The notes under the pieces are model-generated. The model searched no databases and had not been told where the DNA came from. It was given only the letters and a program-made list of their open reading frames with translations. Both the position numbers and the translations under genes were made by a program. Positions 8,684 to 38,813 of a stretch of DNA of 51,574 nucleotides are shown piece by piece. The stretch covers positions 1-51,574 of the forward strand of contig CAYIFW010000002.1 in assembly GCA_964362795.1 (NCBI GenBank). Direction: 5' to 3'. Within the stretch, counting starts at the first letter, position 1. Each line of letters opens with the position of its first letter. The stretch comes from an uncultured Planctomycetales bacterium (GTDB lineage: Bacteria > Omnitrophota > Gorgyraeia > Gygaellales > Profunditerraquicolaceae).

Positions 8684-9967
8684 ATGTATGATCTGGCCGT
8701 CATCGGAGCAGGTTGGGCGGGATTTAACGCTGCTCAAAGAGCAAAAGATCTTAAGCTTAAAGTTTGCCTTATTGAATCGGCTAAAATCGGCGGAACCTGC
8801 CTTAATCACGGATGCATTCCTACCAAGGTATTAATTGCCTGCGCTAAAGCATTTTCTCTGGCTGAAAAATCATCTGTTTTTGGCATAGAGTTAGAAAACC
8901 TGCGGGTTAATTTCGTAAAAATCCAAGCCAGGAAAAATAAGATTGTGGACCAGCTTGCTCAGGGCATGAAAGCCAGGCTGGCAGGAATTGATTTCATTAA
9001 TTCAGGCGCCCAACTTGTTTCTCCTCAGGAGATAAAAGTTGACGGCCGCTTAATTAATGCTAAGTTCATACTTATTGCCAGCGGAAGCCGCCCGGTTGGA
9101 TTAACAGATTTAGAATTCGATCAAGAAAAAATAATCTCTAGCGACCAGGCTCTGGAGTTAACCGAGATCCCGCAGTCTTTATTAATCATCGGGGCAGGGG
9201 TGATTGGTTGTGAATTTGCCAGCCTTTTTTCTATTCTGGGAAGCAAGGTAACTCTAGCTGAGAAAATGCCGCATCTTTTACCGGAACAGGATCAAGACCT
9301 GGCGCGAAAATTAGAAGTTATTTTTAAGAAAAAATCCATTCAAGTAATTACCGGCGCTGATGTCAGCGCGATTAAGCCGCAGGATTATTCACGGGTTATA
9401 GTTTGCGTAGGAAGAGCTTCTAATATTGCCGGCCTGGGATTGGAAAATTTAGGGATAAAATTAGAGAACGGTAGAATTGGGGTCGATGATTATCTTAAAA
9501 CCAGTGTTGCTAATATCTATGCGGCAGGGGATTGTGCTTCTAGAATAATGCTGGCTCATTATGCTGCTTATCAGGGGATAACGGCAGTTGAAAATATGGT
9601 TTCTAATAATAAACATAAAGCAAATAACCCGGTCGTTCCTGCCTGTATATTTACGCAGCCGCAGTTGGCAAGCGTAGGTTTAAATGAAGACGCTGCAATG
9701 GCAGCCGGTTTAGCGGTTAAAGTCGGCAAATTTGATTTTCGCGCCAGCGGCGCGGCTTGGATTATCGATGAAACTGAAGGTTTCATTAAGGTTATTAGTA
9801 ACGGCCAAACTCAGGAAGTAATCGGCGCTAGCATTATCGGCCCGTTGGCTAGTGAATTAATTGCAATTTTTTCAATGGCAGTTTCTCTGCATTTGACGCT
9901 TAGCCAAATCCGCGCGATCATCTTTGCCCATCCTACTCTTGCGGAATCAATTCATGAAATTTCTTAA
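8684..9967 (+). CDS. lpdA: Dihydrolipoyl dehydrogenase-like flavoprotein disulfide reductase
   Basis: 427 aa with FAD motif VIGAGWAG, redox disulfide GGTCLNHGCIPTK, NAD motif IIGAGVIGCEF and C-terminal HAHPTLAE. Confidence 0.85.
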   Translation: MYDLAVIGAGWAGFNAAQRAKDLKLKVCLIESAKIGGTCLNHGCIPTKVLIACAKAFSLAEKSSVFGIELENLRVNFVKIQARKNKIVDQLAQGMKARLAGIDFINSGAQLVSPQEIKVDGRLINAKFILIASGSRPVGLTDLEFDQEKIISSDQALELTEIPQSLLIIGAGVIGCEFASLFSILGSKVTLAEKMPHLLPEQDQDLARKLEVIFKKKSIQVITGADVSAIKPQDYSRVIVCVGRASNIAGLGLENLGIKLENGRIGVDDYLKTSVANIYAAGDCASRIMLAHYAAYQGITAVENMVSNNKHKANNPVVPACIFTQPQLASVGLNEDAAMAAGLAVKVGKFDFRASGAAWIIDETEGFIKVISNGQTQEVIGASIIGPLASELIAIFSMAVSLHLTLSQIRAIIFAHPTLAESIHEIS

Positions 9968-33611: not shown

Positions 33612-34351
33612 ATATCGTTGGTATCGGGCCTGGAGACTTATCTCAATTAAGCAAGAGCGCTTATGATGCCATAATCGAATCTCAGGTAATCGTAGGATAC
33701 ACTACCTATATAAAACTTTTAGGTAAATTAATAGCGGATAAGGAAATTATTTCTTCCGGGATGACTCAGGAGATTGTCCGCGCAAACAAGGCAATCGAAA
33801 AAGCGCTTGCGGGTAAAATTGTTTGCGTGATCTCAAGCGGAGACCCGGGAATTTATGGTATGGCTGGGCTTATATTAGAGCTTTTAAAAAAAAGCGATAT
33901 AGAAAAGCTGCGGATAGAGATTATTCCCGGCATAACCGCGGCATCTGCTTGCGCAAGCCTTTTAGGCGCTCCACTGGCGCAGGATTTTGTTGTTATCTCT
34001 TTAAGCGACCTTTTGGTTACGCGTAAGGAAATTGAAAGAAAACTAAAATACGCTGTAAGGGCTGATTTTGTGGTTGTTCTCTATAATCCAAAAAGTAAGA
34101 GTAGGATTAAGCCGCTTGAGCGAGCATGGAGTATTATCAGTCAATACAGATCCGCTCAAACACCCGTGGGGATAGTCAGGAATGCTTATAGAGATTATCA
34201 ATATTTAAGGGTAACACAGCTTAAGAATGTAGGCCGGATAAAGGATATCGATATGGCTACGACAATTATTATCGGTAATTCACGGACGTATGTTAAAGGA
34301 AGATATATGATTACCAGCCGGGGTTATGATATAAAAAATGTTTTTCGATAA
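33512..34351 (+). CDS. cbiH: Cobalt-factor III (C17)-methyltransferase
   Basis: LNIVGIGPGD...SSGDPGIYGMA...IPGITAA identifies CbiH. The conserved domain starts near 33608. The only canonical in-frame start is TTG 33512, inside cbiG, so the true start is uncertain. Confidence 0.86.
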   Translation: MPALRLIGGKEDKINSKKRDFRRRNSSNCPGKLNIVGIGPGDLSQLSKSAYDAIIESQVIVGYTTYIKLLGKLIADKEIISSGMTQEIVRANKAIEKALAGKIVCVISSGDPGIYGMAGLILELLKKSDIEKLRIEIIPGITAASACASLLGAPLAQDFVVISLSDLLVTRKEIERKLKYAVRADFVVVLYNPKSKSRIKPLERAWSIISQYRSAQTPVGIVRNAYRDYQYLRVTQLKNVGRIKDIDMATTIIIGNSRTYVKGRYMITSRGYDIKNVFR

Positions 34352-35042
34352 AGTATTTAGAATCACGTTTTTAATTTCTGTCCTTACTCATGGACTGGTC
34401 CTTTTACAGGCTACAAACCTCAATCCTTTTCTTCCTGCGCCGAAAAAGCAAGATATCGAAGTACGTTATATTAAAAAAAATCCCGATACTAAGTCTCCGC
34501 TTGAGGTTTCTTCCCGACCAGGCCAGCAAAGATCTCTTTCTAAGCCTAGCCCTTTTTTAAATCTGGACTCTAAAATTATTACCGGCAACCGGGTTCCTCC
34601 GCCGTATATTGAGCAGAGCAATGCTTATAAGCCGCAAGGCGTGCTGCCGAATAAACCATCAGGAATACCTAAGCCGACCTTTGCCAGCCCGGATCTAGTC
34701 GCGATAAAAAGAAAGATTGCTCTACCTCCGATACAGATGGCCAAGATCGATAATCCCAGCTACATAACTTACTATCAGATCGTCAGGGAGAAGATCCGCC
34801 GCAGTGCCTATCAAAATTACACTCAGAATGAGATCGGAGAGGTGTATATTTCTTTTATTATCTCTTACGATGGCTATATCAAAGATGTACGTTTAATTGA
34901 AGACAAAACAAACGCCAATGATTATCTAAAAAGCATTGCCTTAAAAAGCGTTAAATTTGCCTCGCCATTTCCCAATTTCCCCAAAGAGCTGGATTATCCC
35001 CAGCTATCTTTTAATATCATAATTTCTTTTGAAATAGAATAA
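34338..35042 (+). CDS. TonB-family energy transducer-like protein
   Basis: 234 aa with an N-terminal TM segment (ITFLISVLTHGLVLL), a Pro-rich linker and a C-terminal TonB_C-like fold (GEVYISFIISYDGYIKDVRLIE...ASPFPNFP). Confidence 0.75.
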   Translation: MFFDKVFRITFLISVLTHGLVLLQATNLNPFLPAPKKQDIEVRYIKKNPDTKSPLEVSSRPGQQRSLSKPSPFLNLDSKIITGNRVPPPYIEQSNAYKPQGVLPNKPSGIPKPTFASPDLVAIKRKIALPPIQMAKIDNPSYITYYQIVREKIRRSAYQNYTQNEIGEVYISFIISYDGYIKDVRLIEDKTNANDYLKSIALKSVKFASPFPNFPKELDYPQLSFNIIISFEIE

Positions 35043-35208
35043 AATCAAAAATCAAAATTATTATTGATTTAACAAGATTAACATTATAAAATGGAAAGAA
35101 TAATTGAGAAGGTTCTTATGATGTCGGCCTATAGTTTTATGAGTTGGCGTTTTCTGCGCCGCCCCATAATTCTACAGTAACCTTTTAAGGCCAAATAAAT
35201 ACTAACTT

Positions 35209-36240
35209 ATGTCCGAACCAACATTCACAAATAGTTTTACACAGCGCATCGAAACCTTAAACAAAAAAGAAATACTGCCGAAGTATTTTAAGGCCCCTAT
35301 TTTTGGGCTTTGGGAATTAACCAATAAATGCAACCTTTCCTGTGTACATTGTTATTACAACGCTAATTCCAAGCCCTCCTCAGCGGAATTTAGCACTTCT
35401 GAAGCCCTTGAGATTGCCCGTCAGTTGGGAGAGTTGGGGGTATTCGAGGTTTACCTTACCGGTGGTGAAGCATTGCTGCGCGAGGACTGGGCGAAGATCG
35501 TCAGCAAGTTAAGGGAATACAATATACAGGTCGGTATTATTACCAATGGCACCTTGGTAGATGAGGCAGCGGCAGAAGAGATTGCGCGGCTTAAGGTAAA
35601 GTGGGTGCAGATTAGCATTGACGGCTCAACAGCTGAAATTCATGAAAAAGCGAGAGGCTTGGCAGGGAGTTGGGAAAAATCCGTCGCTGCGGTAAAACTC
35701 CTTAAAAATAAGGGCGTGCGCGTGCATGTTTCCTTTGTGCCTTCCAGCGTAAATTATTTTGATGTAGGTAATGTAATTAGGCTGTGCGCGGAAATGGGCC
35801 TGGAATATTTTGTCACGGATATGCTGGTCTTGACCGGCCGGGCTGCCTTGAATTCTGCTTCGATTGCCCTCAGTGATAAACAGTATACCGAATTTTTTAA
35901 ATCACTGGATGAGTCGGCCAAGAAATATTCTGATAAAATGAGAATCATCGCTCCCTCTCCGGAAAAACAGGTCTTAAAGACTTACCTTAGCGTGCGTTCG
36001 GCGGCGCCCAATATCTGGTGCATCATTACCCCCGAAGCAACCTTGAGGCTCGATCTCCTGCTGCCTTTCACCTACGGTAATTTACGTAAGCAGCCGATAA
36101 AGCAAATTTGGGGAGAATACTTGAAGGAAGGCTGGAGGAGGCCGGAAGTAGTTTCCTTTATAAAGAAATATGAACAGCTGAAGGATTTGATTGCAGAGAG
36201 GACTATTCCATATGTCACGGAAGATATCCATTATGAGTAA
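35209..36240 (+). CDS. Radical SAM protein, PqqE/MftC-like architecture but lacking auxiliary-cluster cysteines
   Basis: 343 aa with CNLSCVHC (CX3CX2C), GGEALL and IDG. The C-terminal region IWCIITPEATLRLDLLLPFTYGNLRKQPIKQIW resembles the start of a SPASM/twitch domain. The whole protein has only 5 Cys, 3 of them in the SAM cluster. No obvious SD precedes the start. Confidence 0.85.
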   Translation: MSEPTFTNSFTQRIETLNKKEILPKYFKAPIFGLWELTNKCNLSCVHCYYNANSKPSSAEFSTSEALEIARQLGELGVFEVYLTGGEALLREDWAKIVSKLREYNIQVGIITNGTLVDEAAAEEIARLKVKWVQISIDGSTAEIHEKARGLAGSWEKSVAAVKLLKNKGVRVHVSFVPSSVNYFDVGNVIRLCAEMGLEYFVTDMLVLTGRAALNSASIALSDKQYTEFFKSLDESAKKYSDKMRIIAPSPEKQVLKTYLSVRSAAPNIWCIITPEATLRLDLLLPFTYGNLRKQPIKQIWGEYLKEGWRRPEVVSFIKKYEQLKDLIAERTIPYVTEDIHYE

Positions 36241-36505
36241 ACCCAGGATAGCTCCTAATTTACGCTGGAGAGTGGATGGTGAAAACGACCAGATTGTAAT
36301 CGTACATAAGGATGATTTTGCGCTGCCCCGAATATTAAATCCGGTTGCCGCTAAGATTTTCCACCTTTGTGATGGCAATAATACCATTGAGGCAATCGCG
36401 GAGAAAGTAGCAGGGGAATTTGAGATTGCGGATTTCTCAATTCTTTTATCTGAAGTCAGCGAATGCGCGCGTTTATTTGTTGAAAAAGGGATATTGGAAG
36501 AATAA
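36233..36505 (+). CDS. PqqD-family peptide chaperone (RRE domain)
   Basis: Start taken at ATG 36233, overlapping the radical SAM stop (ATGAGTAA). The 90 aa read ...LPRILNPVAAKIFHLCDGNNTIEAIAEKVAGEFEI...VSECARLFVEKGILEE, the classic PqqD pattern. Confidence 0.85.
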   Translation: MSKPRIAPNLRWRVDGENDQIVIVHKDDFALPRILNPVAAKIFHLCDGNNTIEAIAEKVAGEFEIADFSILLSEVSECARLFVEKGILEE

Positions 36506-36527
36506 AACTAAGAGGGAGGTGTTGAGA

Positions 36528-36668
36528 TGAGTGAGATTAGATCGACCATGATACCTGAGAGCCGGAAGATCAAAAAGGGGAAAGGTTTAAAAAAATATGT
36601 TTCACCCGAATCGGTTTCAATGGAGGCGTTTGCATTAAAGACTGCTGTTGGTGTTTCGCCCGCGTTGA
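36528..36668 (+). CDS. Unannotated 46-aa peptide ORF (MSEIRSTMIPESRKIKKGKGLKKYVSPESVSMEAFALKTAVGVSPR)
   Basis: Absent from the ORF track. A strong SD GGGAGG lies 7 nt upstream of the ATG. The ORF sits 22 nt after the PqqD stop and 46 nt before the prenyltransferase start. No family recognised. Confidence 0.45.
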
Positions 36669-36714
36669 AAAAAGAAGATAATTACATTGTTTCAACCTTA
36701 TTTTAACTTAATCA

Positions 36715-37665
36715 ATGCCGGTTAAGATTCGGCGGCTTATTTCTCAGTCGCCTACAAAAACGGTTTATGCCTGGCTTAAGGTTTTAGGCCCGCCATTTAT
36801 CTTGTTGACCGTGGTTTTAACTCTGTTGGGTACGGCGATAGCCTATAACCAGGGGTGTTTTAACCTCGGTTTATTTTTGGCGGTTTTAACTGGTTCGGCT
36901 TGTATACATTTCGGCGCTAGCTGCCTGAATGACTATTTTGACTTTTTGGGTGGAACCGATAATATCAATGAAACCGTTACGCCATACAGCGGCGGCTCAC
37001 GCGTCATACAGGAGAACCTGATCGAGCCGCAAACTTTGCTCAAGGCGGGTATCGGGCTATTGAGCACGGGCGCGCTCATCGGCCTGGTTTTAACCGTTCT
37101 TTGCGGCTGGCCAGTATTGGTTTTGGGTATAATCGGGATATTTTTGGCTGTCGGCTATGTCGAGCCGCGGGTTAATCTTTCCGCCAGGGGTTTAGGCGAA
37201 TTAGCTGTGGTTTTAGGTTTTGGCCCGCTTTTGGTAAGCGGCGCGTATTATGCGCAGGTCCGACATTTTGACAAGGTTTCTTTATTTGCCGGTGTGATTA
37301 CGGGTATCCTTGCCGGTTTGGTCCTGTGGATAAACGAAATTCCGGATTTTGAAGCAGACGATAAGACCGGTAAAAAAAATCTGGTAGTGCGTTTGGGTAA
37401 AAAAAGCTCCTCGCTAATCTTTATCTGGCTGCAACCGGCCGCTTTTGCGCTTACTTTGATAGGCCTGGCAATAAAAATCTTTCCCTTATCATGCGTTTTG
37501 GTTTTTTTGAGCGCTCCACTTAGCTTTCGAGGGGCAAAGACAGCGCATAAAAACTATATGGATGTTCAGAAACTGCTTCCCGCTAATGCTTCAGCAATCG
37601 CGCTGGTCATTGTTTTTTCTTTGCTTATGTCTTGTGGTTTTATTTTAGATAAGGTTTTTAGGTAG
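36715..37665 (+). CDS. UbiA-superfamily aromatic prenyltransferase, MenA-like
   Basis: 316 aa with 8-9 TM segments, first Asp-rich motif NDYFDFLGGTD and second motif NEIPDFEADDKTGKKNLVVRLG, as in 1,4-dihydroxy-2-naphthoate polyprenyltransferases. Confidence 0.85.
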   Translation: MPVKIRRLISQSPTKTVYAWLKVLGPPFILLTVVLTLLGTAIAYNQGCFNLGLFLAVLTGSACIHFGASCLNDYFDFLGGTDNINETVTPYSGGSRVIQENLIEPQTLLKAGIGLLSTGALIGLVLTVLCGWPVLVLGIIGIFLAVGYVEPRVNLSARGLGELAVVLGFGPLLVSGAYYAQVRHFDKVSLFAGVITGILAGLVLWINEIPDFEADDKTGKKNLVVRLGKKSSSLIFIWLQPAAFALTLIGLAIKIFPLSCVLVFLSAPLSFRGAKTAHKNYMDVQKLLPANASAIALVIVFSLLMSCGFILDKVFR

Positions 37666-37757
37666 AGTGCGTTTTAGATTCAGTCATTTTGGTATCATCC
37701 TATAAATTATATCTTTCTGTTGTAACCTTTAATTCCCACCATTGCCTGCCGTTATTA

Positions 37758-37786
37758 TTGACACTTTTTTAAAAAAATGGTATATT
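37758..37786 (+). promoter_or_regulatory. Candidate sigma-70 promoter with extended -10 (TTGACA - 17 nt - TATATT, with a TG dinucleotide 1 nt upstream of the -10)
   Basis: TTGACA at 37758-37763 and TGGTATATT at 37778-37786, about 40 nt upstream of rpsU. Confidence 0.55.
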
Positions 37787-37824
37787 AATTATCTTAAAAT
37801 CCAATAGGAAAGGAGATGATTATA

Positions 37825-37986
37825 TTGACTCAAGTTGAAGTAAAAAGAGATGAATCTTTTGAATCTGCTTTGCGCCGTTTTAAGAAAAAGATCGAGCAGG
37901 AAGGAATTTTGCGGGAAGTCCGCGACCGTAAACATTACGAGAAACCCAGCGAACGCAAGAGAAAAAAAGCTAAAGCTAGAAAATAA
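37825..37986 (+). CDS. rpsU: 30S ribosomal protein S21
   Basis: Absent from the ORF track. A TTG start (SD AGGAG 9 nt upstream) gives (M)[52 protein letters not shown], a typical S21. An in-frame ATG at 37816 is too close to the SD. Confidence 0.9.
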
Positions 37987-37988
37987 GT

Positions 37989-38813
37989 ATGGCGGCTCAA
38001 GTTAATCTTCGTAAGAGCGTTGTATCCGGACAATTTTATCCATCAAATGCCGAAGGACTTATTACTTTGATTGCTTCTTTTGCTGATAAGCGAGCGCAAA
38101 AGATCGATTGTCTGGGCGCTGTTCTTCCGCATGCCGGGTATATCTATTCCGGGAGAGTTGCCACGCAGACAGTTTCCGGAATTAAGATTAAGGAAAATGT
38201 CGTTCTTTTGGGGCCGAATCACACCGGCCAAGGCGCTGTTTTTAGCCTAATGACACAAGGCTCCTGGCAAACTCCTTTAGGAGAGGTAGAAATTAATTCT
38301 AAACTGGCAGGTTTATTTCTAAAAAAATGCCGGTATCTGGAAAATGATGTGCTGGCACATTTGGATGAGCACTCTTTGGAAGTAGAACTGCCCATATTAC
38401 AGTACTTTAGCCAAGATTTTAAAATTGTTCCGATTGCCATGATGACTGATGATTTGTCTAGGCTTAGTGAGGTGGCGCAAAGTTTGGCCGAAGTAATTAT
38501 TGAGAATAATCTTAAAAGTTCAACGCTGTTGATTGCTTCAAGCGATATGACTCATTATGAGTCGCAGAAAAGCGCGCAAAGAAAAGATGCTTTAGCGATT
38601 GAGGCGATAGTTGCTTTGGATGAATATAAGTTAGAAGCACAAATTAAGAAGTTAGGCCTTTCGATGTGTGGTTTTGCTCCGGTGGCGGTTTTAATCAAAA
38701 CAGCCAAGCTTCTCGGGGCTCAGGGTGCTAAATTAATTAAATATCAAACTAGCGGTGAAGCTACGGGTGACTCCAGTAGTGTCGTAGGCTATGCCGGAAT
38801 TACAATTTATTAA
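37989..38813 (+). CDS. MEMO1-family protein (AmmeMemoRadiSam system protein B)
   Basis: 274 aa with SGQFYPSN, LPHAGYIYSG, GPNHTG and SSDMTHYE motifs. Confidence 0.88.
   Translation: MAAQVNLRKSVVSGQFYPSNAEGLITLIASFADKRAQKIDCLGAVLPHAGYIYSGRVATQTVSGIKIKENVVLLGPNHTGQGAVFSLMTQGSWQTPLGEVEINSKLAGLFLKKCRYLENDVLAHLDEHSLEVELPILQYFSQDFKIVPIAMMTDDLSRLSEVAQSLAEVIIENNLKSSTLLIASSDMTHYESQKSAQRKDALAIEAIVALDEYKLEAQIKKLGLSMCGFAPVAVLIKTAKLLGAQGAKLIKYQTSGEATGDSSSVVGYAGITIY

Follow-up and report, generated by a model that had tools for sequence, protein, structure and literature searches.

A recurrent Omnitrophota cassette linking a putative peptide-maturation trio to a MenA-type prenyltransferase

Organisation of the cassette

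This study deals with a four-gene cassette found in a 51,574-nucleotide stretch of DNA from an uncultured Omnitrophota bacterium recovered as a genome bin in Hainich groundwater (contig CAYIFW010000002.1, assembly GCA_964362795.1), which is hereafter called the window. The cassette spans about 2.5 kb and is self-contained; its four open reading frames (ORFs) are tightly packed on the forward strand, with a gap of 166 nt before them and another of 150 nt behind. It begins with a radical S-adenosylmethionine (SAM) enzyme of 343 amino acids (aa) at 35209-36240 (+), which was recognised from its ORF, from Pfam and NCBIfam scans and from family alignments. A stand-alone PqqD-type peptide-binding protein of 90 aa (36233-36505, +; PF05402) comes next, a recognition element (RRE) of the kind known from peptides that are made on the ribosome and modified after translation (RiPPs), and its ATG lies inside ATGAGTAA, overlapping the stop of the radical SAM gene. 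The third gene encodes a peptide of 59 aa (36527-36706, +) and ends with TAA at 36704-36706, while a Shine-Dalgarno sequence read directly from the DNA, GAGGGAGG (36512-36519, +), lies 7 nt before its ATG at 36527. The last gene, identified by PF01040 and TIGR00751, encodes a UbiA polyprenyltransferase of the MenA clade (316 aa; 36715-37665, +) and starts 8 nt after the peptide stop.

Much of this layout had been anticipated by the original prediction, a note made from the letters of the DNA alone. The ORF and Pfam scans confirmed its 343-aa radical SAM protein with CNLSCVHC and five cysteines; the 90-aa PqqD ORF that starts across the radical SAM stop, the strong Shine-Dalgarno site ahead of a short ORF and the MenA-like UbiA with the motifs NDYFDFLGGTD and NEIPDFEADD were likewise found as described. 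It had also taken the unit for a module of its own on account of flanking gaps of about 160 nt, which agrees with the gaps measured and with the recurrence of the four-gene order elsewhere. Two of its figures were wrong, as it gave the short ORF 46 aa and set it 46 nt ahead of UbiA.

Distribution of the cassette

The module is real and recurrent. The order radical SAM, PqqD, peptide, UbiA was observed only in uncultured Omnitrophota, in 12 distinct loci (the window, equal to L101, together with L001, L083, L084, L089, L090, L097, L098, L104, L105, L106 and L111), with at least six unrelated flanking contexts among them, and the check that had been proposed earlier, whether the triad of radical SAM, PqqD and UbiA genes recurs in other genomes, is answered by the same 12 loci. 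In all close loci, a conserved PqqD gene comes immediately behind the radical SAM gene, the peptide gene follows PqqD directly in every case, including loci that lack UbiA, and in five loci only 3-8 nt separate the peptide stop from the UbiA start. In L106, the trio of radical SAM, PqqD and peptide genes is placed between a polyprenyl synthase gene and UbiA. For one UbiA homologue, P0174, the trio was predicted upstream beforehand and was then found there. Twelve further radical SAM/UbiA pairs lie on contigs of equal size in both match tables and are therefore probably on the same contigs, whereas a metagenome scan returned only about 10 close loci, mostly short. One of the carriers, RIFCSPHIGHO2_02_FULL_45_21, belongs to the order Gygaellales of the class Velamenicoccia and has a genome of 1.3 Mb. 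The cassette is present in the assemblies GCA_001805575.1, GCA_030695905.1, GCA_041643075.1 and GCA_040960175.1 and in the Hainich H43 bin.

The peptide gene

The short ORF was called as a gene in all assemblies and by every gene caller, and a peptide of 54-62 aa was present in 16 of the 16 informative loci, with GGAGG-type sites ahead of its ATG in nearly all of the orthologous loci. An alignment of 16-17 distinct orthologues divides the peptide into two parts. Residues 1-23 (36527-36595, +) form a variable N-terminus rich in Lys and Arg, whereas the last 36 residues, YVSPESVSMEAFALKTAVGVSPALKKEDNYIVSTLF (residues 24-59 with the stop; 36596-36706, +), are nearly invariant. The family pattern reads Y-x-x-P-x3-[SA]-M-x-x-F-x-x-[KR]-T-A-[VL]-G-[VI]-S-P-A-[LM]-K-K-x3-Y-[IV]-x-S-[TV]-L-F-stop, so that the peptides end with STLF or SVLF. 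By tblastn, the C-terminal part is 60-77% identical across loci, compared with 40-52% for PqqD, 55-62% for the radical SAM enzyme and 52-59% for UbiA; by sequence identity, no other gene of the unit is as well conserved as the short ORF.

Within the conserved part, the nucleotide differences number 880, 737 and 2720 at codon positions 1, 2 and 3, respectively, and in 10 of the 36 core columns the amino acid is invariant while at least three codons are used. Judged from this codon signature, the peptide is under purifying selection, and the amino-acid conservation of a short ORF, which had been suggested as a check, is clear for the ORF after PqqD. A profile search of 1.84 billion representative proteins recovered only seven real clusters, which indicates that the peptide family is narrow; an eighth match, P0258, was set aside as a spurious repeat protein that is no relative of the peptide.

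The radical SAM enzyme and its PqqD partner

The radical SAM protein matches the Pfam family Radical_SAM at 2e-28 and carries the cluster motif CNLSCVHC (CxxxCxxC) as well as a GGE motif. It has exactly five cysteines, namely C41, C45, C48, C193 and C271. Neither of the two that are outside the cluster belongs to a CxxC-type motif, so no SPASM/twitch auxiliary-cluster motif is present; in the family alignments, C193 and C271 are at least 90% conserved, though not invariant, and are the sole cysteines of this kind outside the cluster motif. No match to the SPASM domain (PF13186) was obtained in this protein even at E 0.1, and the auxiliary-cluster cysteines are all missing, in line with the earlier view that the enzyme could not ligate SPASM auxiliary clusters. 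The C-terminal segment IWCIITPxGxxRLDLLLPFTYGNL displays the sequence pattern of a SPASM/twitch hairpin with none of its cysteines. The closest PDB relatives by profile were SkfB (5e-32) and PqqE (1e-16), and an AlphaFold2 model with a predicted local distance difference test (pLDDT) score of 84.8 gave SkfB, PqqE and SuiB as the best Foldseek matches. The C-terminal domain, as modelled, is a SPASM/twitch-like fold, and kinship to the SPASM/twitch maturases is found in both fold and sequence.

In the NCBIfam scan, the best 25 of the 95 matched families were considered, and the cut-off of none of them was reached. The best named matches, AhbD, NirJ, ScmE, WgkB, MftC, SkfB and PqqE, covered the N-terminal barrel only and all fell far below their cut-offs, the best score being 135 bits against a cut-off of 500, and MqnC and MqnE were not among these 25 families. 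Membership in the PQQ (pyrroloquinoline quinone), mycofactocin, AhbD/NirJ and Mqn families was rejected on the model cut-offs. The original prediction had named clustering with the Mqn enzymes or another non-peptide family as an objection, and by profile and fold the enzyme groups instead with SkfB, PqqE and SuiB. We propose from these comparisons that it descends from the SkfB/PqqE/SPASM branch and has lost all of the auxiliary-cluster cysteines.

The PqqD protein matches PF05402 with 29 bits (1.3e-6) against a gathering threshold of 23.4, and the model TIGR03859 gave 25.5 against a cut-off of 46. An alternative start, ATG 36212, would give 97 aa and is sometimes preferred by gene callers. 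PqqD domains are peptide-binding partners of peptide-modifying enzymes.

The tight family of the radical SAM enzyme comprises about 48 clusters with 53-93% identity, all named ones being Omnitrophota, after which there is a gap down to about 30%. At that level, a wider family, also devoid of the SPASM cysteines, was found in Aenigmatarchaeota, Selenomonadaceae, Phascolarctobacterium, Lachnospiraceae, Synergistaceae and Holosporaceae. A PqqD-like ORF lies within 4 kb in 62 of 80 wider-family loci and just downstream in 56 of the 80, and many loci have peptides of 60-80 aa, rich in Ala, Gly and Val, that bear an N-terminal Y-x-[KR]-P-x-V, spaced as in YVSPESV of the cassette peptide. No NCBIfam model names these relatives at about 30% identity or their peptides, and the wider radical SAM/PqqD/peptide family appears, from its gene content, to be an uncharacterised RiPP family. 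Because of this linkage to PqqD and to peptides, the cassette enzyme is assigned to an unnamed, usually PqqD-partnered family, and peptide modification would be its probable role. It was also observed in the wider family (L003-L079; for example L013 7938-9477, L008 7875-9289 and L003 4837-6422) that a YkgJ-like CxxCxxCC protein is encoded upstream in 33 loci and that methyltransferase-PqqD fusions occur.

The UbiA prenyltransferase

The UbiA protein matches PF01040 at 1.2e-23 and has both Asp-rich motifs intact, and among PDB entries UBIAD1 matches it best. None of the PRK06080 MenA subfamily models reached its cut-off, the highest score being that of NF004751 with 152.8 against 264. In every locus inspected, homologues with at least 49% identity stand behind the trio. 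The next relative, from an archaeon (L107, 46%), occurs without the trio in a set of UbiA, polyprenyl synthase and geranylgeranyl reductase genes; another homologue, P0187 (41%), is likewise without the trio, and the homologues at 36-46% identity are annotated as MenA. In comparison with 62 MenA-like relatives, the cassette lineage carries the fixed substitutions R25G, A31L, N69S, F147G, I200A and F209I at positions that are 87-95% conserved, and it has a conserved N-terminal extension. Since UBIAD1 itself departs at positions 200 and 209 from the consensus of the outgroup, these substitutions are weak evidence for a changed acceptor. On its motifs and relatives, the cassette UbiA is of MenA type and forms a separate lineage that was encountered only behind the trio.

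Comparison with known systems

With SkfB, PqqE and SuiB, the cassette shares the CxxxCxxC core, the PqqD partner, the adjacent short precursor gene and a C-terminal beta-hairpin, ITPxGxxRLD..PFxYGNL, that fits the SPASM/twitch fold, the best matches being 6efn (5e-32 and 5e-17), 6c8v and 5v1s. The cassette enzyme differs from them in having neither auxiliary-cluster cysteines nor a Pfam SPASM match. Moreover, the RRE of SkfB and SuiB is an N-terminal domain, whereas that of the cassette is a separate protein.

The proteusin epimerases manage with the radical SAM cluster only, an RRE and a single critical cysteine that donates hydrogen (PMC8326336). The cassette resembles two of them, PoyD and OspD, in its radical SAM cluster only, its PqqD partner and its near-invariant C193 and C271, and the richness of the wider-family peptides in Ala, Val and Gly was counted as a further likeness. 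On the other hand, the cassette precursors have no Nif11 or NHLP leaders, and the RRE is separate rather than a C-terminal domain as in the proteusin enzymes. Epimerisation in the cassette is suggested by analogy with these enzymes only.

PQQ (PqqA/D/E) and mycofactocin (MftA/B/C) offer another parallel, with a very short precursor conserved at its C-terminus, a PqqD chaperone, a radical SAM enzyme and possibly a redox-related context. Against this, the PqqE model TIGR02109 gave 99 bits with a cut-off of 381 and the MftC model TIGR03962 gave 114 with a cut-off of 265; the cassette encodes neither PqqB/C/F nor MftD/E/F, its peptide has no E-x3-Y motif and no C-terminal GVY, SPASM clusters are missing, and a UbiA enzyme is present instead. 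In none of the loci inspected was PqqB or PqqC found.

MenA and UBIAD1 share with the cassette prenyltransferase the UbiA fold, both Asp-rich motifs, a TIGR00751 score above cut-off and, in some loci, an adjacent polyprenyl synthase. The cassette enzyme differs from them as a separate lineage within a peptide cassette, with its substitutions, its N-terminal extension and subfamily scores below cut-offs. As regards the cyanobactin F-family ABBA enzymes and ComQ, the shared outcome would be an isoprenoid on a ribosomal peptide; these enzymes are soluble and use C5-C15 donors, whereas the cassette UbiA is a polytopic membrane protein of the long-chain MenA type with another fold. The combination of a RiPP with radical SAM and UbiA enzymes, or of PqqD with UbiA, was not found in any relevant form in the literature searched, which agrees with the earlier remark that no described counterpart was known.

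Proposed mechanism and alternative explanations

On the strength of the sequence comparisons, we hold with good confidence that the trio is a RiPP-type maturation system of a new family. The claim that the cassette as a whole is a RiPP-type system with a polyprenylated product is more tentative, and we would give it slightly less than an even chance. The best-supported reading, in which the MenA-type enzyme tailors the product of the trio, is put forward as possible and just short of evenly balanced, and what argues for it is the gene linkage: UbiA follows the trio across unrelated flanks, often with a spacing of 3-8 nt, which is hard to explain without a shared function.

According to this proposal, the cassette would be a self-contained operon of an uncultured Omnitrophota lineage (class Velamenicoccia, or Koll11 in GTDB). 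The PqqD protein would bind the peptide, probably at the Y-x-x-P segment, and present it to the radical SAM enzyme. As the latter has the SAM-cleaving cluster only, together with a near-invariant cysteine outside it, its reaction on the conserved core would most likely be a redox-neutral hydrogen abstraction, with the epimerisation carried out by proteusin enzymes as the closest precedent and a cross-link as the alternative. UbiA would then add a polyprenyl chain, at the cytoplasmic face of the membrane, onto the modified peptide or a fragment of it, and the membrane-anchored product could work with the membrane redox machinery of the cell. The product may thus be a lipid-anchored peptide or a cofactor used in respiration. 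What the comparisons establish is which genes are present, the families they belong to, how far they are conserved and how they are linked. Every chemical step in this scheme is one that we infer, and this is true in particular of the action of the prenyltransferase on a peptide.

Several observations weigh against tailoring of the peptide by UbiA. To our knowledge, no enzyme of the UbiA family accepts a peptide, and the literature searched held no counter-example. The mapping of the clade-specific residues onto UBIAD1 was ambiguous and allowed no assignment to a substrate pocket, C271 is changed to Gly in one family member, and genes for a protease, a hydroxylase or an exporter are missing from the cassette. 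The UbiA protein scores 114 bits with the menA model TIGR00751, above the equivalog cut-off of 102.15. Furthermore, several loci have neighbours that look like those of an ordinary quinone system, namely a polyprenyl synthase, an Nqr-like complex and NapC/NirT. Lastly, four loci of a sister clade (L085/86, L099/100, L109 and L110) have the trio but no UbiA, so that UbiA is dispensable for the trio.

Some of these points, that is, the TIGR00751 score, the neighbours (including Rnf/Nqr-like complexes with an NqrF-like subunit, and cytochrome b) and the trio without UbiA, are also what favours the strongest alternative, which we consider unlikely but of real weight. In this explanation, UbiA is an ordinary MenA that converts 1,4-dihydroxy-2-naphthoate (DHNA), made elsewhere in the genome or salvaged from neighbours or hosts, to (demethyl)menaquinone, and the trio is a separate RiPP system that is merely co-transcribed or belongs to the same respiratory regulon. 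The intact Asp-rich motifs, the match to UBIAD1, the MenA annotation of the homologues and the classic arrangement in L107, where UbiA stands with polyprenyl synthase and geranylgeranyl reductase, speak for it as well. Salvage of quinones or DHNA is documented for bacteria that cannot synthesise them (10.1101/2023.03.13.532228, PMC9704088). The explanation by an ordinary MenA is opposed by the position of this UbiA lineage directly behind the trio in 12 of 12 loci with unrelated flanks, by the PRK06080 models that remain far below their cut-offs, and by the substitutions of the lineage at positions conserved in MenA-like relatives. In the supplement of Seymour et al. (PMC10066038), two Omnitrophota genomes of about 93% completeness, which are not known carriers of the cassette and one of which is from Velamenicoccia, list menA (K02548), while menB/C/D/F, ubiE and mqnA/C/D/E are absent from the part of the same table that was covered; a statement in the main text assigns menaquinone pathways only to some Velamenicoccia. 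An orphan menA is equally explained by DHNA salvage, and it therefore weakens the explanation by an ordinary MenA only slightly. No gene of the Men or futalosine pathway was found in the window or in any locus.

A second alternative takes the peptide, like PqqA or MftA, as the precursor of a small redox cofactor, in which an aromatic residue is reworked, excised by housekeeping proteases and given a polyprenyl tail to become a quinone-like membrane electron carrier; we regard it as improbable. Equally improbable in our estimate is its extension, that such a peptide-derived, quinone-like lipid would stand in place of menaquinone and feed the Rnf/Nqr-like and NapC/NirT-type complexes. The precursor-like conservation of the peptide, with its variable N-terminus, invariant C-terminal part and invariant Tyr and Phe, would fit such a role, and so would the narrow family with no sign of core diversification, the recurrence of quinone-using modules as neighbours, the place of the trio in L106 and, within the portion of the supplement just cited, the orphan menA of the two genomes. 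However, the cassette has no peptidase, oxidase or hydroxylase, and with these genes by themselves we can suggest no way of turning Tyr or Phe into a carrier that takes up two electrons reversibly. Lacking auxiliary clusters, a radical SAM enzyme also seems poorly suited to oxidative chemistry, as judged from PqqE and MftC, and the scores with the models of these two enzymes are far below the cut-offs.

The least probable explanation, that the 59-aa product is an unmodified small protein, such as one that regulates the prenyltransferase or a membrane complex or is a subunit of either, while the radical SAM and PqqD proteins act elsewhere, draws on a conserved part of 36 residues that is long, nearly invariant and more protein-like than a typical RiPP core, but it conflicts with the established role of PqqD domains, with the peptide gene that directly follows PqqD even where UbiA is missing, and with the PqqD genes and short peptides that also flank the relatives at about 30% identity.

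Returning to the tailoring of a trio product by the MenA-type enzyme, should the prenyltransferase act on the peptide, no other enzyme of the UbiA superfamily would have done so before with a ribosomal peptide, and RiPPs would have a new mode of lipidation. Should the product be a cofactor, membrane electron carriers would have a third route of origin, and this in a phylum of ultra-small uncultured bacteria that seem to have an incomplete quinone metabolism. The radical SAM enzyme defines an unnamed PqqD-partnered family that has lost its SPASM cysteines, and as relatives occur in Firmicutes of the human and ruminant gut and in DPANN archaea, its chemistry is of wider interest.

Genomic neighbourhood of the cassette

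The flanking genes vary from locus to locus. In the window, cobalamin genes lie upstream and rpsU and Memo downstream; L104 has an RND efflux system upstream with Fur and FTR1 downstream, and L105 has AAA_14 upstream and a B12 radical SAM gene downstream. An Rnf/Nqr-like cluster and polyprenyl synthase accompany the cassette in L097 and L106, L098 has Rex upstream and Rnf downstream, and in L111 the cassette is embedded in a cluster with genes for haem biosynthesis, NapC/NirT and multihaem cytochromes.

Six-gene clusters in Rnf/Nqr order adjoin the cassette in three of these loci (L097 702-6215, L106 1-5253 and L098 10447-14359). They encode an RnfC-like protein (Complex1_51K, Fer4), RnfD/NqrB, an FMN_bind protein and two Rnf-Nqr subunits, and in L097 and L106 they end with an NqrF-like protein (transmembrane helix, 2Fe-2S and FAD/NAD domains) at the place of RnfB, so that this cluster looks like an Rnf/Nqr hybrid. 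In L106, an AhbD/NirJ-like radical SAM/SPASM gene and a DsbA-like gene come directly after the cassette UbiA (8873-9925). The cassette of L111 (8032-11415) sits as an insertion between two NirD/L-like (AhbA/AhbB-type) genes, where the junctions are 2-nt and overlapping ones, and its surroundings include haem biosynthesis, a NapC/NirT quinol dehydrogenase, multihaem cytochromes, cytochrome b and ResB/CcsA.

In the sister clade, the peptide ends with ...SRTALGVSPAMKKKENYVVSVLF. Its loci (L099 7993-9497, L100, L109 8001-9816 and L110 2056-5701) lie beside genes for Wzy_C (O-antigen-ligase-like), polysaccharide deacetylase, GT2, carbamoyltransferase and B12-binding radical SAM proteins, and the same peptide may there undergo a different membrane-associated tailoring.

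Upstream region and remainder of the window

A consensus scan located a promoter-like site, TTGATT and TAAAAT with a 17-nt spacer (35064-35092, +), at about 115 nt upstream of the radical SAM start. The block TTGATTTAAyAAGrTTAACA..ATAAAATG also precedes the cassette in L104 and L105, two close relatives, despite their different flanking genes, and thus accompanies the cassette into differing genomic contexts. The leader of 166 nt, like the whole of 34000-38500, gave no Rfam match to a riboswitch or other RNA at E 0.1.

The 20-aa mini-ORF of the original prediction (35118-35180) does exist, but it failed as a precursor candidate, being missing from L104 and L105 and overlapping the conserved promoter. 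In its 29-aa version (35091-35180, +), the first ATG falls inside the -10 box; tblastn matched it solely to copies of the same contig (L101-L103), and the whole stretch is deleted in L104. Having no conservation, this mini-ORF is placed outside the system.

Directly upstream of the cassette in the window, an ORF of 234 aa (34338-35042) showed weak TonB C-terminal matches only (E about 0.04), and it is not found beside the cassette in other loci. Downstream, a strong separate promoter precedes rpsU. The rest of the 51-kb window carries ribosomal, tricarboxylic acid cycle-type, lipid A and cobalamin genes, and no quinone or Rnf genes were found in it. All annotated genes examined in the window (1-51574) are on the forward strand and the GC skew is positive in every 2-kb bin, which fits a long co-directional stretch on the leading strand.

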